Made by a program: the position numbers and the translations under genes. Positions 2,782 through 19,676 of a stretch of DNA of 19,806 bases are shown piece after piece. The notes beneath the pieces were generated by a model. The model saw nothing but the letters and a program-made list of their open reading frames with translations, was not told the DNA's origin and ran no database searches. The DNA comes from a virus (taxonomy: Duplodnaviria; Heunggongvirae; Uroviricota; Caudoviricetes). The stretch lies in IMG/VR virus record IMGVR_UViG_2711768067_000013, positions 1 to 19,806 of that record; one strand, given 5' to 3'. Positions within the stretch are counted from its first letter, which is position 1; each line of letters starts with the position of its first letter.

Positions 2782-4623
2782 TTAATAGGTTGACCCGCCT
2801 GACATAACACCCAGCGTTAATAGCTTGCTAAACTCAGCGGAGGATGCCTTTGATTTGAAGTCGATAAATTCGCTCAATCGTCCGGTGTCTGATTCGATAG
2901 TTAGCGGCACTTCTGCATTTACTTGTAATTCTGGATTGAAGTTAATAACAGGTGCAAAGGTGTAAGAAGGAGCCTTGAAAGCTTGTTGTGCTGCACTCTG
3001 TTTCAGATTTGCAATGTTTTGTCCTTCGAGACTGTATTGATTTACAGCCTGCGCCCCACCTACCGTTTCTTCTGGCATAAACCAGCTTTTAATAGTGTTA
3101 ACCAGGGAATTGCTGTTATCTGGCTTAATTGTTCCGGTGCCAGCGCCTTTATATTGATCAGGAGTGAGATTAGAAAGATTCTGCTTCATTCCTTCGTTAG
3201 ATAGTGGCGGTGCATCCCCTAAATTCTTCTGAATAGCTTCCGTCTTCTCGTCGTTTTTCATCAGCCAGTTGATTGTTTTCATTACGGCGTTAACCAATCC
3301 GCCGATAGCCTCGCCTAATTTGGTAAACATTGGCAGCATTGCAACCATGCTCTTTTTAAACTCTTCAATCACTTTCGGATCAAGAGATTTCATAAAGCCA
3401 TCAACAAAGGCGATCCCTTGTGAGTCAGAAAGCCCACTAAGTGCATTATTCAGTTCACGGAATTTAATAACGCTTTCCTGTTGTGCCTGCGTTACCCAGC
3501 GCCCTGATTCTCGTTGTTCTCGTGCTGATTGTTCCACTTCTTTAGCGGAGCGTGTCCAGTATTTAGAGGTGAGCATCAAATCATCAGCCAGATCTTCCAG
3601 ACGACTACCGATTTGTGCATCTGAATAGCCTTTAGCTACCATTCCCTGAACTGCTTTACTAACCAGACCAGCCGGATTATCAGCAAAGTCTTTTAGATCC
3701 TTTTTAGTTAGGAATCCTTCATTCATTAAAGTATTGATGCCGCTATCGCCGCCCTTCCATTCTCCTTTACCAGTTTTCTTATCAACTACATATTCAGCTT
3801 CATCATAAGATTTGGTTGCACGTTCACGCACATCTTTCATCTGATCGAGATACTTACGTTTACCTTGTTCGCCCATCATTGAATCAACGCCGTTTTTATA
3901 CGCCCATTGCTCAATATTGTTCATCTGGTTAACGTCTACACCGCCCAGCTTGGCACGGCTATACAATTCACCCAGCGTTTCAGCATTCGCAAAGCTGTTA
4001 GTAACAAATTCAGAGGCTTTGCTCATAGCCATATATGCAGCGCCAGCGCCTAAGCCGCCCAGCATAACAGCCGCAGCACCGCCGCCAATACTCCCGCTAC
4101 CCTTAACAGGTGCATAGGCTTTAGCGTGAGCGTTACGATTGCCATTAATCTTACGTTGTTGCTGTTGTAGGCGTTTCATTTGGCTATTCATACGTGCCAG
4201 ACTAATAGCGCCTCTTTCATATTGGAGGGCAATTTCTCTAGCCTGTGCAATAGCTTTATATTGTTCCGCTACAGAAAGACGGTGCAATGCGCTAATGCTT
4301 GCTCCAACGTCTAAAAGCTTTAATTCAGCCTTCTCTTTCCGTGCTGCCAGGGCTTTTTGTTCTCTTGCAACTACACGTTGAGCGGCTAATTGTGCTTTAG
4401 CATTGGCTTTATCTGCCTGTGCTTGCTTTTTAGCAATATCGTCTACGTCTTTTTTTGCTTTAGCGGTTGATTGTTTATGTGTCTTAACACGCAATTCTAT
4501 ATCTTTCACCGCCGCCATTTGTTTACGAAGTTTTTCTACTTCTGCTTTTGCTTTCTCTAATGATGGTCGGTTAACTTCGAAGGTGACAACGTTCGAGAGG
4601 CGTGCCACGTTTAGCTCTAACAT
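2782..4623 (-). CDS. 613-aa protein with an N-terminal K/A/E/Q-rich coiled-coil region (~160 aa) and a Gly/Ala-rich hydrophobic segment (GSGSIGGGAAAVMLGGLGAGAAYMAM); tape-measure-like architecture, function unproven
   Basis: Long ORF with ATG at 4623 and AGGGA upstream. The composition resembles phage tape-measure or internal virion proteins, but this is an architectural impression only. Confidence 0.6.
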   Translation of the reverse strand: MLELNVARLSNVVTFEVNRPSLEKAKAEVEKLRKQMAAVKDIELRVKTHKQSTAKAKKDVDDIAKKQAQADKANAKAQLAAQRVVAREQKALAARKEKAELKLLDVGASISALHRLSVAEQYKAIAQAREIALQYERGAISLARMNSQMKRLQQQQRKINGNRNAHAKAYAPVKGSGSIGGGAAAVMLGGLGAGAAYMAMSKASEFVTNSFANAETLGELYSRAKLGGVDVNQMNNIEQWAYKNGVDSMMGEQGKRKYLDQMKDVRERATKSYDEAEYVVDKKTGKGEWKGGDSGINTLMNEGFLTKKDLKDFADNPAGLVSKAVQGMVAKGYSDAQIGSRLEDLADDLMLTSKYWTRSAKEVEQSAREQRESGRWVTQAQQESVIKFRELNNALSGLSDSQGIAFVDGFMKSLDPKVIEEFKKSMVAMLPMFTKLGEAIGGLVNAVMKTINWLMKNDEKTEAIQKNLGDAPPLSNEGMKQNLSNLTPDQYKGAGTGTIKPDNSNSLVNTIKSWFMPEETVGGAQAVNQYSLEGQNIANLKQSAAQQAFKAPSYTFAPVINFNPELQVNAEVPLTIESDTGRLSEFIDFKSKASSAEFSKLLTLGVMSGGSTY

Positions 4624-5018: not shown

Positions 5019-6050
5019 TTACGCAGCAGATCCGAAGATGATAGCTTGCGGAATGTTGTTTACTGGCAGATAAGATGTCTCAGTAACCACAGATGGGAAT
5101 TGGAATTCATCCTTGATTAGATATTGGTGATGTAACACGGCATCTTGACCTAACTCAGCATGACGCACACCAACGCCGCTATGAAGCTGGTAACACTGTG
5201 CCGCTTTATCCATTACCGGAACAATTGCGAAACCGTTCTCTCCGATGTGAGCAACAATCTCAGGAAACATTGACACATCAATAGCAGTGATCCCGCCAAT
5301 CTGGAAAGAGTCATAGGCTGGGTTAGAATCAACCATACGGGTAAACAGGGCCGTAGCACTCGCATCACCTGCATATTTCACCATGTCACTGATCAGCGGG
5401 TTAGATGACAAACCATCAGCAGCAGCGCCAGCAGCAAAGATAATTACACCAGTTCGCTTTGCAGCAAGAGCAGACCCCAGCTTTTCACTCTGTAAGCGCA
5501 CCGCTTTACGAATAGCAAGGAACGGGTTAACAGTAGTCGATGCAAAGTCGATAGCGGGTACCGTGGTTTTAGCCTGACCGTCGAGGAAGTCGAGATCACC
5601 TTGTCCGGCATATTCAGATTCAACTTTCAGTCCCAGCAGCGCGGTAATCAGATCCACTTCAACACGGTTTGCGTGTGAACGGTAATGAGCCTCAGAGAAA
5701 TCATTAACCGCTACCAGCATAGCATCAGAACGGTTTGGATATTGGCGGCTGTATTGTTCCAGGTCACGAGAAGTAACAGCGTTAATACTGCCGACGTGTT
5801 TCATCTGGAAAAGTTTGTTTGACCATTCCTGACGTTTAGAGGCGTTCCAGTCGCTTTGAGCGTAAGGCGAGGTTTCCCCAGCTACCTGCACAAACTGATC
5901 AATCAGGTCGGTAAGAAGAATGCTGTTTTCTGTATGATATTGCACATCGAACAGATCGAGATTAGTAATCAGGGTATTAAGTGCATTCTCATAAGCAAAT
6001 GGAGTTACTACCGCAGTATTAACACCAAAATATGTTGATAAATCATTCAT
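5019..6050 (-). CDS. 343-aa hypothetical protein, candidate major virion structural protein (capsid- or tail-tube-like); function not established
   Basis: ATG at 6050 with AAGGAAAA 8 nt upstream, and only 14 bp after the upstream 127-aa gene. A stem-loop follows the stop (4988-5006). No enzymatic motifs; the call rests on size and gene context. Confidence 0.6.
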   Translation of the reverse strand: MNDLSTYFGVNTAVVTPFAYENALNTLITNLDLFDVQYHTENSILLTDLIDQFVQVAGETSPYAQSDWNASKRQEWSNKLFQMKHVGSINAVTSRDLEQYSRQYPNRSDAMLVAVNDFSEAHYRSHANRVEVDLITALLGLKVESEYAGQGDLDFLDGQAKTTVPAIDFASTTVNPFLAIRKAVRLQSEKLGSALAAKRTGVIIFAAGAAADGLSSNPLISDMVKYAGDASATALFTRMVDSNPAYDSFQIGGITAIDVSMFPEIVAHIGENGFAIVPVMDKAAQCYQLHSGVGVRHAELGQDAVLHHQYLIKDEFQFPSVVTETSYLPVNNIPQAIIFGSAA

Positions 6051-6681: not shown

Positions 6682-6731
6682 AAAAGCCCCAATGCCGTAA
6701 GAGGTTAATTCTGACCAGCAAAGGGGCTTTA
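6682..6731 (-). terminator. Terminator-like hairpin immediately upstream of the structural-like block (minus-strand sense)
   Basis: AAAGCCCC and GGGGCTTT arms (6682-6690 and 6724-6731) around a ~33-nt loop, followed on the minus strand by TTTTTATTT. The large loop makes this a weak call. Confidence 0.3.
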
Positions 6732-7326
6732 ACGTGCGGGCAATTACATAATTGATAAGTTAAACTATAAGAGGATTAAACATATCAGCAAATACACTTT
6801 TTAAATATACTTGATGATATGCTTAAAGGGTGAATAGATACTCCTGAAAACATGCTCTTAGGAAAACATGCGGAATCAATCAGGAATATCTATTCGGGGC
6901 GCGGTGGCCAACCGCTATCTTTCATGGTGTGGATGCACCAGTCAGATTTTAAGGAATCACTATTCCAATCTACTCACAGATTAAATTTTTAATAATGATT
7001 AACTACACCAACAGTAATCTACCGTTTCAGAAAATCGTTTTTACAACCAAAGCTTATAGATCCGCATTCTATAAAACCCGTTTTGCTATCAATATTTCCA
7101 AAGGTTATTGCACAATTCTTAGCTAAACTCTCTACTTGCGGCTAACGCTACGCAGATGATAGTTTTTTGACAACAACTTAATAGATTATTCTGTTACTAA
7201 CTTCTGTCATTAAATAAGAGTTTAATGATGTTAGTAAATAGTTATAAAATATAACTATCAGTGTAAGGCTCTTTAATGTTTTCGGACAAAATAAGGAGCT
7301 TTAGGATAAGCATAGATGAAAATAAG

Positions 7327-7364
7327 AGCGGGAAGGGCAAGGAGATAACACCTACCCGCTTTTA
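7327..7364. terminator. Bidirectional terminator-like hairpin in the 930-bp spacer
   Basis: agcgggaagg (7327-7336) pairs with cctacccgct (7351-7360) with one mismatch; T-tracts follow on both strands (TTTTAT plus; CTTATTTTC minus). It lies ~270 bp downstream of the 102-aa gene in minus sense. Confidence 0.4.
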
Positions 7365-7633
7365 TCAAAATTAAGCACAATGCCTAACAACATTCATCAA
7401 CACAACGTAGAAACAATCAACAATCAAAGAGGGAGTTATGATTATTCTAAAACTTCTTGAGGGGATGGAAGGTAATATTTGTTAGAGGTTAATGCCACTC
7501 AACCCTTGAGGCTATCACCTTCCATATGCAGGGATTTATGACAGTAGAAGGATTAACACCAGTCAAAACCTTTTTATCTACCCCTAATATCATTATATAA
7601 TGAAATTGTTATAAATGCAAATGATTTTCATTA

Positions 7634-7942
7634 TCACTTAGAAGAAATAGCACTTTTTGCTAAATCATCTACTAATTGCTGAATCTCTTCACTTGCAGCC
7701 TTTAACGTGCTGGCGCTGCTGCTGATGGTTTGAGTGCACAGCCTGGCATCGTCCTCTGATAGCTCTAAATCGCTCACCAGAGAGATAAAATCGTCAAGGC
7801 TTACATTCACCTTCATTAAGCTAATAACGCATTGAGAGAGCGTGTAATCGCATAAATCTGAATAGGCTTGATTTATTCTTGTTTGTAGTGAGATAGTCAG
7901 ATCTAAAAGTTGTTCCATTGCATTGCTAATATCTTCTTCCAT
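7634..7942 (-). CDS. Hypothetical acidic protein (102 aa)
   Basis: ATG at 7942 overlaps the stop of the upstream 67-aa gene (TAATG), suggesting translational coupling. Confidence 0.5.
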   Translation of the reverse strand: MEEDISNAMEQLLDLTISLQTRINQAYSDLCDYTLSQCVISLMKVNVSLDDFISLVSDLELSEDDARLCTQTISSSASTLKAASEEIQQLVDDLAKSAISSK

Positions 7943-8145
7943 TATGCGGCTTCTCCTTGTAATGCATCATTAATCATATTCAATACGATGTTAAAAGGTG
8001 TCTTGAGCGTCAGCACTTCATCACGATAACGCTCTAATGCTTCGTAGTCTTCTGTTTCTTTTGCCAGTCGGATTAACTCAGCATAGTTTTTTGCATCAGA
8101 CAGGATCATCTGAAATAATTGTGTTTCCTGTATATGGTCGATCAT
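7942..8145 (-). CDS. Hypothetical protein (67 aa)
   Basis: ATG at 8145 with AAGGAA 6 nt upstream. Confidence 0.5.
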   Translation of the reverse strand: MIDHIQETQLFQMILSDAKNYAELIRLAKETEDYEALERYRDEVLTLKTPFNIVLNMINDALQGEAA

Positions 8146-8162
8146 TGTTGTTCCTTTTATTT

Positions 8163-8549
8163 TTAGTTTGAACGTTTGTTAGATGCGAGAGTGTCGATCA
8201 GGTGCTGCATCAGATCTGTTTCTGTAACGCCGCCTACCTGATTGTTGAAACTATTAAAACCGATATAGTGCCTGTAGCTGGTAAAATTTAACAGCTGCCA
8301 TTTCTTTAATGTGCCAGGTTCTATAATCGTTGTCTTTCTTGTTCTGGGTTTGAAATACACACCATCACCCATTGATTGAATAATTTCTAATTCTTCGTTT
8401 GTAAGTGGTGGGCTGTTAGATTCTAAAATGAAGATTATCTCTTCCCCTGGAATTTCGTTATTGGTGTGTGTCGGTGGACGTTGTCTTGTTGAATTGAAGT
8501 TACTGTTTTTTTCAATACGTTTTAAGTTGTTCTTTTTCTTTCTTCCCAT
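8163..8549 (-). CDS. Hypothetical protein (128 aa), basic N-terminus
   Basis: ATG at 8549 with AGAGGGA upstream. Confidence 0.5.
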   Translation of the reverse strand: MGRKKKNNLKRIEKNSNFNSTRQRPPTHTNNEIPGEEIIFILESNSPPLTNEELEIIQSMGDGVYFKPRTRKTTIIEPGTLKKWQLLNFTSYRHYIGFNSFNNQVGGVTETDLMQHLIDTLASNKRSN

Positions 8550-8645
8550 TTTCCCTCTTTTTATGTGGATTATAAAAACTGAATGCCATAGTTACGATGA
8601 ATATCGCCATAAATGCATTTGCCATATGTATTGCCCGATCTGTTG

Positions 8646-8903
8646 TTATTGATTGTTTGTGATAAACAATTCAAAATCTTTGTTTAATTTCAAAAGACGA
8701 AATGTAGTGTGGTTAATCCCTTCATAATCCAGCACACCGAACGATGTAAAATGATTTACGTGTTGTGCGCTGTAGCCGCCTAAACTACAAAAGCTAACCA
8801 CTGTCGGTGGTGAAAACTCTATTTCCAAAATAGCTTTTAAAATGTTGTATCCGCTTTCAGTTATTTCAATAGTTTTGTTTCCTATAGTGATGTTATAAGT
8901 CAT
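8646..8903 (-). CDS. Hypothetical protein (85 aa)
   Basis: ATG at 8903 with AAGGAG 6 nt upstream. Confidence 0.5.
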   Translation of the reverse strand: MTYNITIGNKTIEITESGYNILKAILEIEFSPPTVVSFCSLGGYSAQHVNHFTSFGVLDYEGINHTTFRLLKLNKDFELFITNNQ

Positions 8904-8912
8904 TTATTCTCC

Positions 8913-9587
8913 TTAGAATGGTATTGAATCGTATATTTCACTTTTTTCTCTTAGAGATATTATCAGATCGTGAAAAGCCTGTTTCTCAAGATAGATATTC
9001 TTTGAATCTAATGCTCGTTTTACAAAATCTTCTGTTTCTTCGTGCGGTGGCTTCTTGTTATCAAGGGAAAGAAGCCAGTTAAAAATCTTTTCCGGGAACT
9101 CTGATTCCTGTATTTCTTCTTCAACGATGATTTCTGAAACATTCAATATTTCATTAGATTCGTTTTCTTTCTCAGAAGGATCAGGTAGTGATGACTCTCT
9201 AGGGGGAGTAATATGTGCATCTGTGAGAGGTAGCGCACGTAATTTTAATGGACGTTTTGGGATTCGTTCTCCGACCTCTTCTAAAAGACCGATTTTAATC
9301 ATAAGACCAATCAATTCATTAACTGTCTTACGGCTACAGCCACAAACTTTACTTAACTTCGTTTGTGTTTCAAAACATATCCCCCCTGATTTCTCCCAAT
9401 CTGAAACATAGCAATATAATTTTTGCATTTCTGCACTAAACTTCGCTTTTCCATCCTCAATATTTGAGGAGTAGATGAATTCAATCTCACAAAAGTAGTG
9501 TGGTATATTCAAAGTTCGGTCTTTAATTTCTCCTGTTTGTTGATCAACATACTGGTATTTTTCACGAATCAATTTAATTTTAGACAT
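8913..9587 (-). CDS. 224-aa putative DNA-binding protein (winged-helix-like segment SRKTVNELIGLMIKIGLLEE); candidate regulator or replication-initiator-like protein
   Basis: Track ORF 8913-9644 starts at GTG; the ATG at 9587 has a strong AAGGAG 8 nt upstream. The C-terminal half is acidic. Function is inferred from the motif only. Confidence 0.5.
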   Translation of the reverse strand: MSKIKLIREKYQYVDQQTGEIKDRTLNIPHYFCEIEFIYSSNIEDGKAKFSAEMQKLYCYVSDWEKSGGICFETQTKLSKVCGCSRKTVNELIGLMIKIGLLEEVGERIPKRPLKLRALPLTDAHITPPRESSLPDPSEKENESNEILNVSEIIVEEEIQESEFPEKIFNWLLSLDNKKPPHEETEDFVKRALDSKNIYLEKQAFHDLIISLREKSEIYDSIPF

Positions 9588-9640
9588 TAGAATTATCTCC
9601 TTATAAATCACGCTTAATGCGCTACTAAAGTGAATGAGGA

Positions 9641-9808
9641 TCACTTACCCTTTTTTTGTTTGATGTTCTCTGCTGCTTCAGTAATGATTTCTAACATCAA
9701 ATCACTGACCATAATTTGCCTTTTCTTGGCTTCAGCAAATAAAATCTTGAAAATTTCAGGGTCAACGTGTAGGTAAGTGCGTGGAATTGGTTTCTTGGTT
9801 TCGCTCAT
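9641..9808 (-). CDS. 55-aa ribbon-helix-helix-like small protein (MSETKKPIPRTYLHVDPEIFKILFAEAKKRQIMVSDLMLEIITEAAENIKQKKGK); absent from the ORF track because it is under 60 aa
   Basis: Hand-translated: ATG at 9808-9806 with AGGAGAAGGAG upstream, TGA at 9643-9641. A predicted strand followed by two helices fits Arc/CopG-type repressors. Confidence 0.45.
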   Translation of the reverse strand: MSETKKPIPRTYLHVDPEIFKILFAEAKKRQIMVSDLMLEIITEAAENIKQKKGK

Positions 9809-9829
9809 AGTTTTCTCCTTCTCCTGTTA

Positions 9830-10012
9830 TTATTCTTTCTCTGCTCCTGCCTTACGCAGTTCATCAATAATTTTTAGTGCATCGTCAAAACATTTTTCAC
9901 GCTCTGGATAACCACAGCGTCGCGCTGTGTTCCTGTTCATCCTTACTTTAAAACGATTGATCTCACCACGTTTCCAGGCTTCAACTACATCCTGGGGAGT
10001 GAAATACTTCAT
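9830..10012 (-). CDS. Hypothetical protein (60 aa), first gene of the minus-strand array
   Basis: ATG at 10012 with AGGAGG 7 nt upstream; 21 bp before the RHH-like ORF. Confidence 0.5.
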   Translation of the reverse strand: MKYFTPQDVVEAWKRGEINRFKVRMNRNTARRCGYPEREKCFDDALKIIDELRKAGAEKE

Positions 10013-10134
10013 TAATTAACCTCCTATTCTATTTGGTTAAAAGAAAAAACACCTTGCAAGCCTTGTTGGGCTTCAAAGTGCGGTGCATTGGTTTAATTAC
10101 TTAGAGGATAAGAATGTTTTCTGTCCCTAATATT

Positions 10135-10163
10135 ACTTTACCACGACTAAAAGCTTTTGTCAA
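10135..10163 (-). promoter_or_regulatory. Candidate sigma70 promoter for the minus-strand array (TTGACA, 17-bp spacer, TAAAGT)
   Basis: Minus-strand TTGACA is the reverse complement of 10158-10163; TAAAGT is the reverse complement of 10135-10140. Motif match only. Confidence 0.3.
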
Positions 10164-10324
10164 CCCCTATCCATAAAAATATTGATCATTTTCAGTGTGT
10201 TATAATTTTTCTTAGCAATTCGTGCTCTTACGGGTGCTCCTATTCTTCCTTATTCTCTAAAACGCTCTAAAACGCCCTCTGACGAGGTTTTGATAAATAC
10301 AATACATTCACTTATGTAGAGGCT

Positions 10325-10780
10325 GTTTAGCTCGCCAGAGGCTTATTTAAGGGGCTTATTTTGTATTTGTTAGGTATATGGGAAGATGATGATAGATAAA
10401 ATCTAATTTCAGACATCTTATAAAATACCTGTAAAGCTCCTCAGAAGCTCTATAACGAGCTAATCTATTACCGCTAAGTGTTTCCCTGCCTTATATACGT
10501 TTAGCTCGCCTACGGCTTGATTTAAGCGGTAGAATCTTATTTAACCTTCAACTACTAAAACCATTCTTTCTTTTTTGTTTGTTGTTGGTTGTTGTCTGTG
10601 TCTATGTGCTAACATCGCTAACGCGTAGCACACAAGGTTATTGCACTCGTCAGAGTATTGCACAATAGATTTTCTCTTAAATAGATTGATGATCGTTAGA
10701 TTGGCGTAAGCCTCATCAATGGAACTATTGAAGCGCACAGCGCAAGACTATTTAGCCTTACGCAAGCCGTAGGCTATTTG
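10325..10780. repeat. Repeat family in the noncoding region: two direct ~28-31-bp copies (10325-10352, 10499-10529) and one inverted, itself palindromic copy (10749-10780)
   Basis: Copy 1 gtttagctcgccagaggcttatttaagg; copy 2 gtttagctcgcctacggcttgatttaagcgg; copy 3 reverse complement contains GCCTACGGCTTG. A TTG/TGT-rich tract (about 10565-10610) and several CTAAC pentamers lie between copies 2 and 3. Confidence 0.5.
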
Positions 10781-10961
10781 CACATAGTAGATTACATATT
10801 CGTTGTGAGCGGCATTAGCGAACATATATCTACTAACTAACATCAACAAACAAAAACTATGTGTTATGACAAGCAGTCTAACGACTAACACTCTAACTTG
10901 TGCAAGGTTCTGGCGAATGCCAATAGATTAAGGGATAGTCAAAGACTCCCTAACGGGTATA

Positions 10962-11045
10962 CCTATAATTATTCTTATAAAGATAAAAAAGAATTATATT
11001 ATATAGTTTAATAGTTAGTTTTATTATTAGTATTATAGATGTTAG
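10962..11045. other. Very AT-rich tract next to the iteron-like array; candidate DNA-unwinding element
   Basis: About 85 bp of almost pure A/T directly upstream of the palindrome array. Confidence 0.35.
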
Positions 11046-11053
11046 TCTTATTG

Positions 11054-11224
11054 TGTAACCTTTCGTTACAACCAATCATCTGCCGATGTAACGTATCGTT
11101 ACTACCGATGTGTAATATCGTTACATTCAATAATTAGTCTATGTAACGAATCGTTACTACAAAATTTCTTACAGAGAGTATTTCAGATAGCTGAATGTAA
11201 CCCATCGTTACATCCATCGTTACA
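11054..11224. repeat. Iteron-like array: five palindromes with a TGTAAC / GTTACA core (11054-11070, 11087-11103, 11111-11125, 11142-11158, 11196-11212) plus an extra half-site (11216-11224); two units form a tandem 22-bp repeat (11083-11126)
   Basis: Read directly, for example TGTAACctttcGTTACA, GTAACGtatCGTTAC, GTAACGaatCGTTAC and TGTAACccatcGTTACA. Could be a replication origin, a recombinase res-like site or a repressor operator. Confidence 0.6.
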
Positions 11225-11661
11225 TCCATTTATCACATAACATCTGTGCAATGATCTTCTAAAAGTGTTTCTTACTATCAAAAATTAAACATCTAAAACA
11301 GGCTTAAATTCAATGTAATTGATGATTAATCCCTGTGTAATTCCTACGTAAAAATTCAATGAAAAGTAGCTTAAAAGTGCAATTCTTACTTTCTTCACTT
11401 TTACATCACTTTCGCAAAGCCTTGTGTAATGCGGCATATAGCGCATCACTGCAAAATTGTTGCTCAATAAACGTTCTATCATTTGTCGAACAAGTTTTCT
11501 TTAATGCAACAAAAAATTATTTTTTCAAAATAAACACACCATTTAATAGCTTGCTAATTTTACCAAAACGTAACTACATGCTTCTCATGCAAGACGTGTA
11601 GTGATAAAGCAGGCTAAATCACCACACTAAAAACCTTCGAATTTCGTAGTGAAAAAAGTCC

Positions 11662-11691
11662 TTTACACACCTAATCAACACGATCAATAAT
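11662..11691 (+). promoter_or_regulatory. Candidate promoter for the serine recombinase (TTTACA, 18-bp spacer, AATAAT)
   Basis: Motif match ~35 bp upstream of the ATG at 11727. Confidence 0.3.
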
Positions 11692-11726
11692 CACTACACA
11701 CAAATCAACACAGAAGGAAAATGAAA

Positions 11727-12278
11727 ATGGCTAATATTGGATACATTAGGGTATCGACTGTGCAACAAAACACAGACCGTCAATTAGCTGGAGTAACTCT
11801 TGATAAAGTCTTTGAAGATAAAGCGTCAGGCAAGAACACTCAGCGCCCACAGTTTGAGGCAATGATGAACTATGTGCGGGAGGGTGACGTGTTACACGTC
11901 CATAGTATTGATCGCCTTTGTCGTAATACAGCCGACCTTCTGGCAACGGTTGAGCAATTAACAGAGCGCGGCGTGTCTGTGCATTTCCATAAAGAAGACT
12001 TTAAGACAGGGAAGAACTCTCCCGCAGGGAATATGATGCTCACAGTGCTTGCAGCAGTGGCACAAATGGAACGTGAAATGATGCTTGAGCGGCAACGTGA
12101 AGGGATCGCCGCAGCTAAGGCCGCTGGGCGTATAGCAAAACGTGGTAATGGAAAAGCAATTGATCGAGCAGGAATTGCTGCCGCTCTCGCGAATGGTGGA
12201 TCAATTCGGAGCGTAGCAAAAGATTTCAGTGTCAGCACACAGACGGTGCAACGTATCAAGAAAGAGCAGGAAGCGTAA
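11727..12278 (+). CDS. Small serine recombinase (resolvase/invertase family, ~183 aa)
   Basis: N-terminus MANIGYIRVSTVQQNTDRQ carries the resolvase catalytic-Ser motif; a C-terminal helix-turn-helix-like region (SIRSVAKDFSVSTQTVQRIKK) follows. The ATG at 11727 is better spaced from the AAGGA than the ATG at 11721. Confidence 0.85.
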   Translation: MANIGYIRVSTVQQNTDRQLAGVTLDKVFEDKASGKNTQRPQFEAMMNYVREGDVLHVHSIDRLCRNTADLLATVEQLTERGVSVHFHKEDFKTGKNSPAGNMMLTVLAAVAQMEREMMLERQREGIAAAKAAGRIAKRGNGKAIDRAGIAAALANGGSIRSVAKDFSVSTQTVQRIKKEQEA

Positions 12279-13951: not shown

Positions 13952-14824
13952 TTACATTTCTAATGCTTTTTCTCTGCTAATTGATCCTTCACCATTGCAG
14001 GTTCTGCAATCTAATTTTATATTCCTGCAGTCAGGACAAGTAAATTTTTCATAATTAGAAAGATTCACCTTTGCAGCAATATATCTTTTTACGGATCCCA
14101 TTCCATTACAGATCGGACAATCTTCTCCCGCTAAACTGCCTTTTCCATTACATAAAGGGCAAGTTACAGTGGATATCACTTCATTTTCATTTTCATAAAT
14201 AAAATTGTTGAAATTTTGGGCGTTTATTGTGCTTAGTTGAACTTTTTCAATTTTTTTTATGTGATGTTCAAAATACTTTTTAATTGCCTTCTTAAGATCC
14301 TCTTTAGACGATTTCCATTGTTCTGGTGAGATCCTAATCGATTGAAATCCTTCGTTACTAGTTATTACTGCATCACGCTTGTAAGTAGACTTAATTTTAC
14401 TTTCCACATAATGAGCTATGTGGCCATCATACTCGATGCCAATAGCAGCAATCTCAACCAAATCTTGACCAATCCATCTATTTAGTCTAAGGACAAGGTC
14501 TATTGCCCAAGGCTGGGCTTTTGGGTTTATATTGCCAACCTTATACTGAGGCTCGATATAAACAATATGTCCGTTTGGGAATTGACCTTTCAGAGTTATT
14601 CGTCGTGGTGAATTTTGAAAACTATCGATTTCCAATGGACTAAACTGAGATATGAGGCCGGCAATTACCTCTATCTCAGCCTGAGATGTTTTTTCCACTC
14701 CTTGTAAACTAATAAGACCGATAGCTACTTGACGGTTAGTGGCTGGCTCAATCCTTTTAAATAGTTTCTTCTGATTATTACTAAAATTATTTTTGATAAC
14801 TTCAAGTGTTTCATCTAGTTCCAT
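13952..14824 (-). CDS. PD-(D/E)xK-type nuclease-like domain fused to a C-terminal DnaJ-type zinc finger (four CxxCxGxG-like repeats)
   Basis: Track ORF starts at GTG 14833; an ATG lies at 14824. Candidate nuclease motif D...IGIEYDGHIAHY (DUF559/Vsr-like). C-terminus has CPLCNGKGS, CPICNGMGS, CPDCRN and CRTCNGEGS. AT-rich gene. Confidence 0.65.
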   Translation of the reverse strand: MELDETLEVIKNNFSNNQKKLFKRIEPATNRQVAIGLISLQGVEKTSQAEIEVIAGLISQFSPLEIDSFQNSPRRITLKGQFPNGHIVYIEPQYKVGNINPKAQPWAIDLVLRLNRWIGQDLVEIAAIGIEYDGHIAHYVESKIKSTYKRDAVITSNEGFQSIRISPEQWKSSKEDLKKAIKKYFEHHIKKIEKVQLSTINAQNFNNFIYENENEVISTVTCPLCNGKGSLAGEDCPICNGMGSVKRYIAAKVNLSNYEKFTCPDCRNIKLDCRTCNGEGSISREKALEM

Positions 14825-14928
14825 CTCACCCACTCTATAAACTGATTATCCATATAAACTACATTATCATTTTTAACTGCTCAACATAGATTAACATAGC
14901 GCGATGCTAACAGTGTCAACTCCTGGCA

Positions 14929-15765: not shown

Positions 15766-16677
15766 TTATATGTAATCAGGTAGTGAATTCAAAGCCATCA
15801 CTCTTTCTCTTTCTTTTTCTGTCATTTCTCTCATAACAATTTGAGATAGCGCTAATGTTATCTCCTTTGTTTTATTGAAGGCTTCTTTGGTATATGTTTT
15901 CCTTCCATACTCAAGTTCATTAAATGTCCCCATAATCCATTTGAGATAGAATAATGGGATGGCTAGATCACTTATATCCTGCCATCTCGTAATCGCTTTA
16001 TATTCATTCCAAAAATAATCCTCAAAATGCTTATCACAATCACCTTTACACGCATAATAAACCGCTATCACCTCATTTGGTTTGTCATCGTGTATGATCT
16101 CTGCATTGCACACAATGCCATCATAATTTTCTTCATGATGGTTTTCTATTAAGTCCTTTCCACAACGATCACATTTTATAGGTAAGTACTTATCAAAAAT
16201 CAAATGCTTGGGTTTTATTTTTTTATAGCTCTCAGGAAAGTATCTAAGGAGTAGTTTTGAGTAACCAATTCTGACTAAGTGATTTTCAATTAATTTACCA
16301 TCAAAGAATCGAAAGTCCTTTATTTTTCCATTCTCTTTTAATTGCGTCATTCTTGAATTTAAACCACTACTTGGCAGTGTTGAGTAAAATCCAATAAATC
16401 CGTCGGCATTGAATCCATCAATACGTTCTTGTATATTAATCTCATCCTTTTCTGAAACTGATTTTTTACTTGTTGCATAATGTTTACAGCTAACAAGCCA
16501 ACGAAATTTATATTTATTTAACTGACCTTGCAATTGCTCTGTGATTAAAAGATCTTTACCTCCATCTGCACCTCTATCTGGCGCGGATTCAATATAAAAG
16601 CCAAGTTCTTCAAGAAAATCACGGGCAAATGACTCCCAGGCTTCACCGTCACTATCAATTTCAGTAAAGTTAATCAT
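15766..16677 (-). CDS. Mrr-like (type IV restriction endonuclease catalytic fold) N-terminal domain fused to a Cys/His-rich C-terminal domain (303 aa)
   Basis: ATG at 16677 with GGGAG 9 nt upstream. N-terminal motifs RGADGGKDLLI and WLVSCKHY fit the Mrr_cat pattern. The C-terminus has CDRCGKD, CNAEI and CKGDCDKH. AT-rich gene. Confidence 0.65.
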   Translation of the reverse strand: MINFTEIDSDGEAWESFARDFLEELGFYIESAPDRGADGGKDLLITEQLQGQLNKYKFRWLVSCKHYATSKKSVSEKDEINIQERIDGFNADGFIGFYSTLPSSGLNSRMTQLKENGKIKDFRFFDGKLIENHLVRIGYSKLLLRYFPESYKKIKPKHLIFDKYLPIKCDRCGKDLIENHHEENYDGIVCNAEIIHDDKPNEVIAVYYACKGDCDKHFEDYFWNEYKAITRWQDISDLAIPLFYLKWIMGTFNELEYGRKTYTKEAFNKTKEITLALSQIVMREMTEKERERVMALNSLPDYI

Positions 16678-17054: not shown

Positions 17055-17924
<870 letters not shown>

Positions 17925-17984: not shown

Positions 17985-18546
17985 TCATTTATCTCCGACC
18001 GGAAACTTCTTATACAGTGTCGATATACCAACATCATAGATGATCGCCACCTTCTGGCGAGGAACGCCTGATGCAATTAATCGTCCGGCCTGCTCCCATT
18101 GTTCTGGTGTAAGTTTGGGACGACGTCCACCAATTCGTCCCTGTGCGCGAGCAGCTTCCAGTCCAGCTTTTGTTCGTTCAACAATCAGTTCACGCTCCAT
18201 TTCAGCCAGGGCACCCATCACATGAAAGAAAAAGCGCCCCATTGGGGTACTGGTATCAATTGAATCCGTCAGACTACGAAAGTTGATGCCTCGTTCGCGC
18301 AACTCCTCCACCAGCACGACAAGATGCCGCATACTGCGCCCCCAGTCTGTCCAGCTTCCAGACAACCAGCGTGTCTCCTGCCGATAGTGTCCTGAGCAGC
18401 TTTTTCAGCCCCGGTCTGTCGGACTTGGTGCCACTGATTTTATCCTCAAAAATCCGCTCACATCCCGCACAGTTCAGTGCATTGCGTTGCAAATCGGTGT
18501 TCTGGTCATTTGTTGACACGCGTACATAGCCAATAAGCATGATCAT
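17985..18546 (-). pseudogene. pin: Pin/Gin/Hin-family serine DNA invertase, disrupted by a +1 frameshift in a C5 run (18339-18343, plus strand)
   Basis: N-terminal ORF (18274-18546) reads MLIGYVRVSTNDQNTDLQ…WKLDRLG, then goes out of frame. C-terminal ORF (17985-18365) reads …GRSMRHLVVLVEELRERGINFRSLTDSIDTSTPMGRFFFHVMGALAEMERE…. Removing one G from the GGGGG run restores WKLDRLGRSMRHL. May be a sequencing error. Confidence 0.7.
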
Positions 18547-18567
18547 CCCCCTGAATAAAAACCGGAG

Positions 18568-19074
18568 ATGATGCCAGTTAGCCGTTATCTCTGCATTTTC
18601 ATAAACGTTGGTTTGGGAGAAGGTTCGGCGTTACCCGTTGGTGTGCCTGTTCCGTGGCCTGCAGCCACTCCGCCAACAGGCTGGCTGAAATGCAATGGTG
18701 CGGCTTTTTCTGCTGAAGAATACCCAGAACTGGCAAAGGCTTACCCGACAAATAAATTGCCTGATTTACGTGGTGAGTTTATGCGTGGCTGGGATGATGG
18801 AAGAGGCGTTGATAGTGGCAGGGGGATTCTCACTGCGCAATCTCATGGTATGCCGTCTATTTCAGGAACGTTTAATGGTCTTTTTGCTGTTAAACAAACA
18901 AATGGTTTAGGTGGTGTTTCTGTAGCAAAAAGTAAAAATGCTGAAACTTTATCTACTTCATCTGGATCAGGTTCCGTGTTTGATTACACGTTTAATGTCA
19001 GCGGTTCGACTCCGGTATCACCAGAACTTCGTCCGCGTAATATTGCATTTAACTATATCGTGAGGGCCGCATAA
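18568..19074 (+). CDS. Tail-fibre protein C-terminal (variable, receptor-binding) segment; probably a silent cassette lacking its constant 5' part in this orientation
   Basis: Translation PVGVPVPWPAATPPTGWLKCNGAAFSAEEYPELAKAYPTNKLPDLRGEFMRGWDDGRGVDSGRG is typical of tail-fibre C-termini. The first ~15 codons read through the crossover site and are probably not native N-terminus. Confidence 0.65.
   Translation: MMPVSRYLCIFINVGLGEGSALPVGVPVPWPAATPPTGWLKCNGAAFSAEEYPELAKAYPTNKLPDLRGEFMRGWDDGRGVDSGRGILTAQSHGMPSISGTFNGLFAVKQTNGLGGVSVAKSKNAETLSTSSGSGSVFDYTFNVSGSTPVSPELRPRNIAFNYIVRAA
18597..18622. other. hix/gix/pix-like 26-bp crossover site for the DNA invertase
   Basis: ttttcataaacgttggtttgggagaa; reverse complement TTCTCCCAAACCAACGTTTATGAAAA has imperfect dyad symmetry resembling invertase sites. 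Lies 50 bp upstream of pin, at the start of the tail-fibre cassette. Confidence 0.5.
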
Positions 19075-19676
19075 TGAATAATGCAGAATTAAATAGTGAA
19101 TTGATTGCTACTGCGGCAGGGAATATTACCGTTTATAACTATGATTGTGAAACACGAGAATATATTTCCACATCAACTGAATATCTTGCTGTGGGTGTCG
19201 GTATCCCGGCATGTTCCTGTCTGGATACACCAGGTATACATAAGGCGGGTTATGCAATATGCCGCTCTGTGGATTTAAATTCATGGGAATATGTGCCAGA
19301 CCATCGAGGTGAAATTGTCTATAGCACCGAAACGGGAGATACCAAAGAAATCACAGTGCCAGGCGACTATCCCGAAAATACAACCACTATCGCCCCGTTA
19401 ACGCCATACGATAAATGGGATGGTGAGAAATGGGTGACCGATATTGAGGCACAGCATAGCGCCGCAGTAGACGCGGCAGAAGCGCATCGCCAATCGCGGA
19501 TTGATGCTGCAATGGCTTCCATCAGTCTGATTCAGCTGAAATTGCAGGCCGGACGTAAACTGACGCAGGCAGAAACAACCCGGCTTAACGCTGTGCTGGA
19601 TTACATTGACGCGGTGGTGGCAACAGATACCAGCACCGCGCCGGATGTCATCTGGCCTGAACTACCGGAGGCGTAG
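19074..19676 (+). CDS. tfa: Tail-fibre assembly protein (Tfa/U-like)
   Basis: ATG overlaps the upstream stop (TAATG). C-terminus …TDTSTAPDVIWPELPEA is typical of Tfa chaperones. Confidence 0.8.
   Translation: MNNAELNSELIATAAGNITVYNYDCETREYISTSTEYLAVGVGIPACSCLDTPGIHKAGYAICRSVDLNSWEYVPDHRGEIVYSTETGDTKEITVPGDYPENTTTIAPLTPYDKWDGEKWVTDIEAQHSAAVDAAEAHRQSRIDAAMASISLIQLKLQAGRKLTQAETTRLNAVLDYIDAVVATDTSTAPDVIWPELPEA

Follow-up and report, generated by a model that had tools for sequence, protein, structure and literature searches.

Seven small genes at 7634-10012 of the virus record IMGVR_UViG_2711768067_000013 probably form the early replication operon of a phage-satellite-like island of ~12 kb in Escherichia. 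At the core of this array lies a gene for a 224-amino acid (aa) protein, Rep (g224), which is likely to be a RepA_N-like replication initiator and looks like an origin-binding replication starter. A set of repeats (iterons) at 11054-11234, ~1.5 kb upstream of rep, is predicted from its sequence to be the origin on which Rep acts, and we regard this assignment, too, with considerable confidence. The whole stretch of 19,806 nucleotides (nt) analyzed here is referred to as the window, and all coordinates are those of the window unless a locus is named; genes (g60 to g102) are named after the length of their products in amino acids, and transcription runs from 10012 to 7634.

The seven-gene array

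In order of transcription, the array contains seven open reading frames (ORFs) for proteins of 60, 55, 224, 85, 128, 67 and 102 aa, all of them on the minus strand and all present where a first-pass annotation, made from the sequence alone, had placed them. That annotation had also assigned each gene its own translation signal, and a purine-rich Shine-Dalgarno sequence does lie 4-10 nt 5' of all seven ATGs (in gene order from g60 to g102: AGGAGG, AAGGAG, AAGGAG, AAGGAG, GAGGG, AAGGA and AAGGAG). The intergenic gaps, in the same order, are 21, 53, 9, 96, 17 and -1 nt; at the last of these the stop codon of g67 overlaps the start codon of g102 (TAATG, 7944-7940), which bears out the translational coupling proposed for position 7942. 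A terminator scan of the minus strand inside the array returned a sole match, a weak 5-bp stem in g85 (8811-8797). The genes are non-enzymatic by motif, again as first described, and look co-transcribed.

DNA matching the query region 7400-11700 is found in 742 of 5426 complete Escherichia coli genomes, at 851 places, 850 of them chromosomal and one on a plasmid. Gene order is maintained in all relatives examined, which are located on E. coli chromosomes, a single plasmid and contigs from metagenomes, even between lineages whose proteins diverge by up to 40-70%, and the ratio of non-synonymous to synonymous polymorphism (pN/pS), pooled over alleles, ranges from 0.09 to 0.65 in the six genes other than rep. 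The pooled value for rep itself, 0.73, is inflated by swaps of domains (cassettes). Because gene order and DNA recur in E. coli and in metagenomes, and because pN/pS is low, the seven ORFs are real and conserved rather than chance ORFs; the first-pass annotation had made its reading depend on such conservation.

The same data bear on whether the array could be part of a decaying prophage remnant, its small ORFs being non-functional. Insertion sequences interrupt several copies of the island, g85 of the window has suffered a 4-aa deletion, and g102 is weakly constrained, as decay would predict. Such a remnant is nevertheless scarcely credible, given a pN/pS well below 1 in six of the seven genes (with rep inflated as described), a gene order conserved across lineages 40-70% divergent in protein, and what looks like an active arms race with phage nucleases, in which DNA identity reaches 100% (see below).

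The Rep protein

Rep, encoded at 8913-9587 on the minus strand, comprises 224 aa from an ATG with a Shine-Dalgarno sequence; the mechanically called ORF, of 243 aa, starts at an upstream GTG. Pfam searches returned HTH_36 (1.3e-4, 22.2 bits against a family cut-off of 25) and HTH_Crp_2, and PHROG searches returned several replication-initiator families, including ‘replication initiation O-like’ (best match 7.8e-6). In the AlphaFold model, residues 1-125 form a confident N-terminal domain (predicted local distance difference test score, pLDDT, 80-94) consisting of a beta-hairpin and a winged helix, which, together with the sub-cut-off HTH_36 match, upholds the winged-helix-like segment noticed in the first pass. 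This domain is followed by a linker that is acidic and disordered (residues 131-165), then by a small domain of three helices (residues 166-220) and a disordered C-terminal tip (...YDSIPF). The predicted N-terminal fold is that of a RepA_N/DnaD-like winged helix and resembles the RepA_N initiators of plasmids and satellites. Rep contains neither a helicase nor a primase domain.

Within the Rep family, three unrelated C-terminal domains occur, all of which end in an acidic stretch followed by (I/L)PF (YDSIPF, EDFDIPF, DDFDIPF and, in island locus L026, ...DTSLPF). The C-terminus of the E. coli single-stranded DNA-binding protein SSB reads DFDDDIPF, and its tip docks many replication and repair proteins. 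Since the acidic linker and tip of Rep resemble this C-terminus, we hypothesize that the D-x-(I/L)-P-F tip recruits replisome proteins of the host or of a helper phage. In one metagenome island (L024, positions 9932-10492 of that locus), a deletion that takes out g85 and g128 has produced an in-frame fusion of the Rep gene with the end of g67.

The candidate origin of replication

The iterons of the window (type A; repeat family D1) consist of four GTAAC-N5-GTTAC dyads, starting at 11054, 11087, 11142 and 11196 (spacing 33, 55 and 54 bp), together with additional half-sites. In the island loci the dyad motif is confined to the iteron position, where it occurs in four copies (three in L005 and L017), and the pentamers GTAAC/GTTAC number 10 in 170 bp at the iterons, compared with 2.5 per kb in the window. 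Adjoining the iterons is an AT-rich stretch at 10953-11053, presumed to be a DNA-unwinding element, in which the AT content is 82% (88% over 10960-11040) against 59% for the window. An AT-rich stretch lies beside the iterons in every type examined (A-E), and its sequence is conserved in types A-D.

Exactly the same island position is occupied by five unrelated repeat sets: GTAAC-N5-GTTAC in type A (4 copies), GGGGGTAGGTCACTGTGAGCTA in type B (2-10 copies), TTCCTACCTACCCAGGAAATGAG in type C (2-4 copies), ACAGAA-N3-TGTTA in type D (5 copies) and CCCCTATCAA-N3-4-TGATA in type E (5 copies). The left and right flanks around the repeats are conserved in loci of types A, B and D and, for type C, in the majority. 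Across 24 loci, each iteron type pairs one to one with a single class of Rep N-terminal domain. The first-pass annotation had proposed a check of whether a ribbon-helix-helix (RHH)-like protein of the array binds the repeats at 11054-11224; the array does prove to be tied to these repeats, but through the N-terminal domain of the 224-aa protein and not through the 55-aa protein it had in mind. Because g55 is 98-100% identical between islands of the unrelated iteron types A and B, Rep rather than g55 is the partner to test on the repeats.

Rep would act on these elements as follows. Its N-terminal winged helix probably binds the four dyads (11054-11216) as a dimer; the spacing between dyads corresponds to multiples of ~11 bp, which would place all of them on the same side of the helix. 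The adjoining 88% AT stretch would open upon binding. In phage lambda, the origin ori-lambda lies inside the O gene and requires the P helicase loader. The arrangement in the window resembles that of O and ori-lambda in having four dyad-symmetric sites followed by an AT-rich region and an initiator with an N-terminal winged-helix DNA-binding domain, and differs from it in that 1.5 kb separate the upstream origin from the initiator gene and no P-like gene is present.

The iteron arrays retain relics of older types at their left edge. In L025 (7300-7345 of that locus) and at the equivalent positions of L023 and L018, relics occur in series, for example a type A half-site, one B repeat and one D repeat ahead of the E array; it looks as though cassettes had been replaced one after another and left their traces. 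Relative to L002 and L016, the window carries a 12-bp tandem duplication (ATGGATGTAACG, 11212-11235) at the array's outer edge. In Vibrio cholerae, the satellite PLE1 (PLE, an element resembling phage-inducible chromosomal islands) escapes Odn, a nuclease of phage ICP1, through small iteron rearrangements (PMC8263062).

These observations bear directly on the control module that the first-pass annotation had suggested on the basis of the winged helix. The winged helix is there, but the array appears to be mainly a replication module, composed of an initiator and an origin, and not only one of control. A purely transcriptional module, in which the 224- and 55-aa proteins would regulate the structural genes and the repeats would be operators, is also what the genome annotation ‘transcriptional regulator’ implies. 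We consider it unlikely, and the database label on the Rep protein family probably wrong: the repeats adjoin a conserved 88% AT stretch and not an operon promoter, the predicted fold resembles that of RepA_N initiators, the PHROG matches are replication initiators, and a RepA_N-type extension, a long acidic linker and an SSB-like tip are untypical of repressors. Moreover, phages fuse the same domains to a nuclease, which is the strategy of Odn against a satellite origin (PMC8263062).

Several points nonetheless weigh against reading the array as the replication operon of a satellite. The HTH_36 match of Rep lies under the family cut-off, and the Pfam search found no sequence match to the RepA_N profile (PF06970) in g224; RepA of PLE likewise lacks RepA_N sequence similarity (PMC7145576). 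The co-variation of iterons and Rep amounts to five cassette types, the loci inside one type not being independent, and with the iterons only ~1.5 kb from rep, linkage within a shared recombination cassette could explain the pairing, although the intervening g60, g55 and ~940 bp of conserved DNA do not co-vary with the iterons. In the island, neither an excisionase nor a helicase loader nor a packaging signal was identified, and in the search for attachment (att) sites the window yielded no tRNA gene and no copy of the 3' end of tRNA-Thr. Finally, g60, g85, g128, g67 and g102 remain satellite-specific orphans.

Rep-like domains in phage nucleases

Residues 1-140 of Rep are 88% identical (tblastn) to residues 1-140 of inny_184, a protein of phage inny (Stephanstirmvirinae), with a DNA identity of 95.5% over 625 bp. 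In inny_184 the Rep-like domain is followed by a second HTH_36 domain and a C-terminal MUG113/T5orf172 domain (GIY-YIG clan), an architecture shared by the nucleases of phages muut and Mt1B1_P17, whose first domains are different. The first domain is of type A in inny_184 (88%), of type D in the Mt1B1_P17 nuclease (identical over the first ~70 residues shown) and of type E in muut_154 (100% DNA identity with E. coli islands over 333 nt), and the second is of type C in each (86%, 85% and 86%, respectively). From these identities, it looks as though lytic phages have copied the DNA-binding domain of Rep into a nuclease.

None of the iteron motifs of the five types occurs in the inny genome (147,483 bp); their presence would have suggested that the nuclease domains serve the phage's own DNA, an explanation that was rejected. 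Type B looks like the commonest replicon, as judged by protein-cluster counts, and among 50,697 phage records nothing closely corresponds to it. The A+C, D+C and E+C domain pairs, the phage-unmatched type B and the iteron relics would fit an arms race that is ongoing and frequency-dependent in E. coli.

Structural genes provide a further connection to these phages. The tape-measure and baseplate genes of the island are syntenic homologues of inny_105 (28%) and inny_106 (49%), and among the best phage matches listed for the tail genes, nearly all that can be classified are Stephanstirmvirinae-type genomes of ~145-151 kb. In the capsid-like protein of the island, residues 25-44 are 60% identical to residues 23-42 of the inny major head protein (inny 53876-54877), the remainder being dissimilar; this 20-residue match may be due to chance, or may mark a contact with assembly proteins of the helper that both share.

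Promoters, leader and non-coding DNA

A sigma-70-like promoter, P_early, is located at 10135-10163 on the minus strand (TTGACA, 17 nt, TAAAGT, with TG before the -10 element; 10 of 12 matches in a promoter scan), and its GGTTGACAAA box is present in all island variants. This near-consensus promoter would drive the operon. The leader of ~90 nt that follows (10038-10130, minus strand) contains a 5' hairpin (10130-10101) and a 13-bp hairpin with a U-run (10081-10038); the leader RNA folds with -22.7 kcal/mol (z = -2.5), and the hairpin is preserved in L006, L009, L025 and L026 despite changes in the sequence of stem and loop. The hairpin and U-run look like an intrinsic terminator ahead of g60, which would limit expression from P_early. 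Because of this predicted terminator, expression of the full operon probably needs read-through, and might follow read-through or anti-termination, for example upon infection by a helper phage.

A second promoter-like site is found just after g102, at 7592-7621 on the minus strand (TTTGCA, 18 nt, TATAAT; 10 of 12 matches in the scan), and has a ATATTAGGGnnAGAnAA element in common with P_early (repeat D8). A palindrome beside P_early does not co-vary with the g55 variant, the pattern being broken by L018 and L024, so that no operator for g55 can be proposed. An Rfam scan of the window returned nothing credible.

Two long non-coding stretches flank the array. The first (10012-10950), situated between P_early and the origin, comprises ~940 bp without a credible ORF and is 78-99% conserved even where the island proteins differ strongly; it holds GTTTAGCTCGCC(A/T)(G/A)(A/C)GGCTT at 10325 and 10499, two copies of GCGTTTTAGAG and several long imperfect inverted repeats, and might serve for packaging, encode a non-coding RNA or provide binding sites. 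The second (6692-7634), ~940 bp free of ORFs that separate the structural genes from g102, shows 92-99% identity across most islands; it begins with the second promoter-like site, which is followed by a downstream element like that of P_early, and an IS1 copy is inserted here in E. coli EC9.

The 55-aa gene

g55 (9641-9808, minus strand) encodes a basic protein of 55 aa, lies directly 5' of rep in every case and has a pN/pS of 0.09. Its residue pattern (RTYLHV, then two amphipathic stretches) agrees with the strand-helix-helix layout described in the first pass; the RHH assignment, by contrast, is a pattern-level guess, the protein having no match in Pfam (RHH profiles included), PHROG, NCBIfam or the PDB as a single sequence, nor in the PDB as a 7-member profile. 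In other islands the same slot contains non-homologous ORFs of 58-59 aa with the same strand-helix-helix pattern, and one of these positional analogues weakly matches RHH_5 (E = 0.013) and a FitA-like RHH protein (0.19).

In the copG-repB operon of plasmid pMV158, a small gene for an RHH repressor is located directly upstream of the initiator gene and is co-transcribed with it. The array is similar in that a strand-helix-helix-pattern protein of ~50 aa is encoded immediately before the initiator, apparently on one transcript. Unlike pMV158, however, g55 matches no RHH family, its promoter palindrome does not follow the g55 variant and offers no identified operator, and RepB is a rolling-circle nuclease whereas the initiator here is of the winged-helix kind. 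By analogy, g55 is most likely a CopG-like regulator of the replication cassette.

The gene is also shared with phages: inny (inny_185) and muut (muut_153) encode g55 at 98-100% protein and 95.5-96.7% DNA identity, and both keep it directly upstream of the gene for the origin-directed nuclease. The left junction of the segment shared by phage and island lies just upstream of the g55 Shine-Dalgarno sequence. It is possible, if rather doubtful, that g55 is a weapon for both sides and not only a housekeeping autorepressor, in which case the phage copy could silence or mis-time the early operon of the satellite, adding repressor mimicry to origin cleavage.

The five orphan proteins

The remaining products of the array are without significant sequence match in Pfam, PHROG, NCBIfam, PADLOC or the PDB. 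The first gene of the operon, g60 (9830-10012, minus strand), encodes a basic protein with an isoelectric point (pI) of 9.3 and has a pN/pS of 0.25 over 13 alleles. Downstream of rep, g85 (8646-8903, minus strand; pN/pS 0.27) has lost four residues (NHWL) in frame in the window relative to all alleles elsewhere, which are of 89 aa, the deletion having occurred between two NH repeats. It is followed by g128 (8163-8549, minus strand; pN/pS 0.29), whose product has a basic N-terminus and belongs to a small, island-confined family of 52 clusters, every one of which, where a source is named, comes from Escherichia or Enterobacteriaceae. A profile search of 1.84 billion representative proteins with g128 retrieved only 26 small proteins of the same kind, the homologue in divergent islands is 32-33% identical, and the AlphaFold model is unusable (mean pLDDT 47.7).

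The last two genes encode acidic proteins. g67 (7942-8145, minus strand; pI 4.4; pN/pS 0.11) is coupled to g102 (7634-7942, minus strand; pI 4.1), which closes the array, shows the weakest constraint (pN/pS 0.61-0.65) and is swapped for other genes in divergent islands. We would guess from context that the five proteins act on excision, late-gene control or helper interference, with low confidence in any specific role.

The island and its surroundings

The array sits in an integrative island of ~12 kb. Its left part consists of a fragment of a LysR gene (1-411), a tyrosine integrase gene (612-1976; Phage_integrase, 3.2e-17) and genes encoding a Dit-like baseplate protein (2057-2734; Pfam Dit_like, 1.6e-27), a 613-aa tape-measure-like protein (2782-4623; PHROG tape-measure match, 2e-31) and a 343-aa capsid-like protein (5019-6050), the last of which is collinear with sister-island capsid proteins of the lambda E type (a Phage_cap_E protein, E = 9e-5). 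Two small ORFs and the ORF-free ~940 bp separate the capsid-like gene from the array, and upstream of the array ~1.7 kb without credible ORFs precede a resolvase gene. This resolvase/invertase gene (11721-12278, plus strand), beside the origin region, is present in L001, L005, L008 and L025 and absent, for example, from EC9. The capsid, tape-measure and baseplate genes keep their order in all island variants. No ORF of the island is long enough for a terminase or a portal protein, and the island is for that reason not an autonomous phage.

Could the array instead serve the replication of an element unrelated to phages, plasmid-like or integrative and mobilizable, with the capsid and tail genes as cargo or remnants? 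One copy does reside on an IncF plasmid, RepA_N initiators are typical of plasmids (PMC7145576), and the origin has a resolvase gene as its neighbour in the window, as it does in a number of other islands. Against this, 850 of the 851 E. coli places are chromosomal, no conjugation or mobilization genes were found among the island genes screened, the order of capsid, tape-measure and baseplate genes is conserved in all variants, and the best listed phage homologues of the tail and capsid genes belong to the group that carries Rep-derived nucleases. An element of this kind is accordingly very improbable, and a phage satellite is the reading we retain.

Other strains have the island at the tRNA-Thr gene thrW; in E. 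coli EC9, for instance, it is bounded by this integrase on one side and thrW on the other. In the window it lies beside the LysR fragment and the integrase. The right end of the island in the window appears to be displaced by extra cargo and a prophage remnant. L004 (Logan DRR634353_211, 12,093 bp) represents exactly one island with an identical 13 nt at both ends (TGTGATTGGCATA), and several other assemblies include contigs of 12.1-12.6 kb carrying a gene of the island; these contigs might derive from excised circles or from breaks in assembly at att repeats.

The cargo past the origin includes three genes: 17100-17924 (plus strand), an anti-phage defence gene PD-T4-3 (PADLOC 2.7e-140; LEM-3-like GIY-YIG); 15766-16677 (minus strand), with an Mrr-type restriction endonuclease domain; and 13952-14833 (minus strand), whose product matches the PADLOC candidate PDC-M01B. 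By analogy with those of P4 and phage-inducible chromosomal island (PICI) satellites, this cargo may be a defence hotspot. Farther right, a split Pin-type invertase gene and genes for a tail-collar protein and a tail-fibre assembly protein (17985-19676) belong to a lambdoid prophage remnant that adjoins the island and is similar in kind to Sp1 of O157 Sakai. The island itself was considered as prophage Sp1/CP-933H (E. coli O157, at thrW) and rejected as such: inspection of the Sakai genome showed Sp1 to be a remnant of lambdoid type that carries cI, cro, O and P. Transcript data for Sp1 do not apply to the island, as the two are unrelated.

Relation to known satellites

Barth, Dunham & Seed 2023 (PMC10448857; NAR Genom Bioinform 5:lqad076) described the RepA_N-T5orf172 proteins of Inny, Muut and Mt1B1_P17 as homologues of odn and compiled 224 putative satellites, ~13 kb in size, in which a modular RepA accompanies genes for integrase, capsid, decoration, tape-measure and baseplate (hub) proteins. 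The window is, on its gene content, a further member of the satellite family predicted there. Like those satellites, it encodes a Rep-type protein (g224) that lacks T5orf172 and is highly similar to part of the inny nuclease; it has a tyrosine integrase at one end with a LysR fragment beside it, in keeping with their tRNA or lysR sites; and its island has capsid, tape-measure and baseplate genes with no terminase, protease, portal, alpA or Pri-Rep. For the second of the RepA_N domains in every odn, the 2023 study detected no cognate among satellites (PMC10448857), whereas here the second nuclease domain is 85-86% identical to the Rep of type C satellites. Its text deals neither with origins or iterons (the word ‘iteron’ is absent) nor with the C-terminal tip, a leader terminator, the sharing of g55 or the small genes. 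New with respect to that work are the candidate origins and their iteron types, the type C cognate, the sharing of g55 with phages and the predicted leader terminator.

As in the case of ICP1 Odn and PLE, a phage nuclease carries the DNA-binding domain of a satellite initiator (PMC8263062). The island differs from PLE in several respects: the profile searches detected no sequence homology and returned no PLE-annotated family; its integrase is a tyrosine recombinase and not a large serine recombinase; and it carries its own capsid, tape-measure and baseplate genes. Odn, moreover, has one DNA-binding domain at 42% identity, whereas the coliphage nucleases have two in tandem, which share 85-100% identity with the Reps of satellites. 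Capsid-forming PICIs (cf-PICIs) and P4-like satellites are similar to the island in being small integrative enterobacterial elements that depend on a helper, and cf-PICIs also encode a capsid protein. Unlike cf-PICIs, however, the island has no detectable small terminase, prohead protease, portal, head-tail adaptors, alpA or Pri-Rep among its 14 ORFs, and unlike P4 it has no Sid, Psu, Delta or alpha primase; the same distinction from cf-PICI and P4-like satellites is drawn in PMC10448857.

Implications

The conflict of ICP1 Odn with PLE is the sole origin-directed nuclease arms race to have been shown experimentally, and an E. coli counterpart was predicted in 2023. To that prediction the window contributes a candidate origin, its cognate initiator and five replicon types with phage-nuclease partners, including the cognate of the ‘orphan’ second domain. 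The small proteins of the early operon are likely effectors of helper takeover, and as laboratory E. coli supports the growth of inny, muut and Mt1B1_P17, the system is open to experiment.

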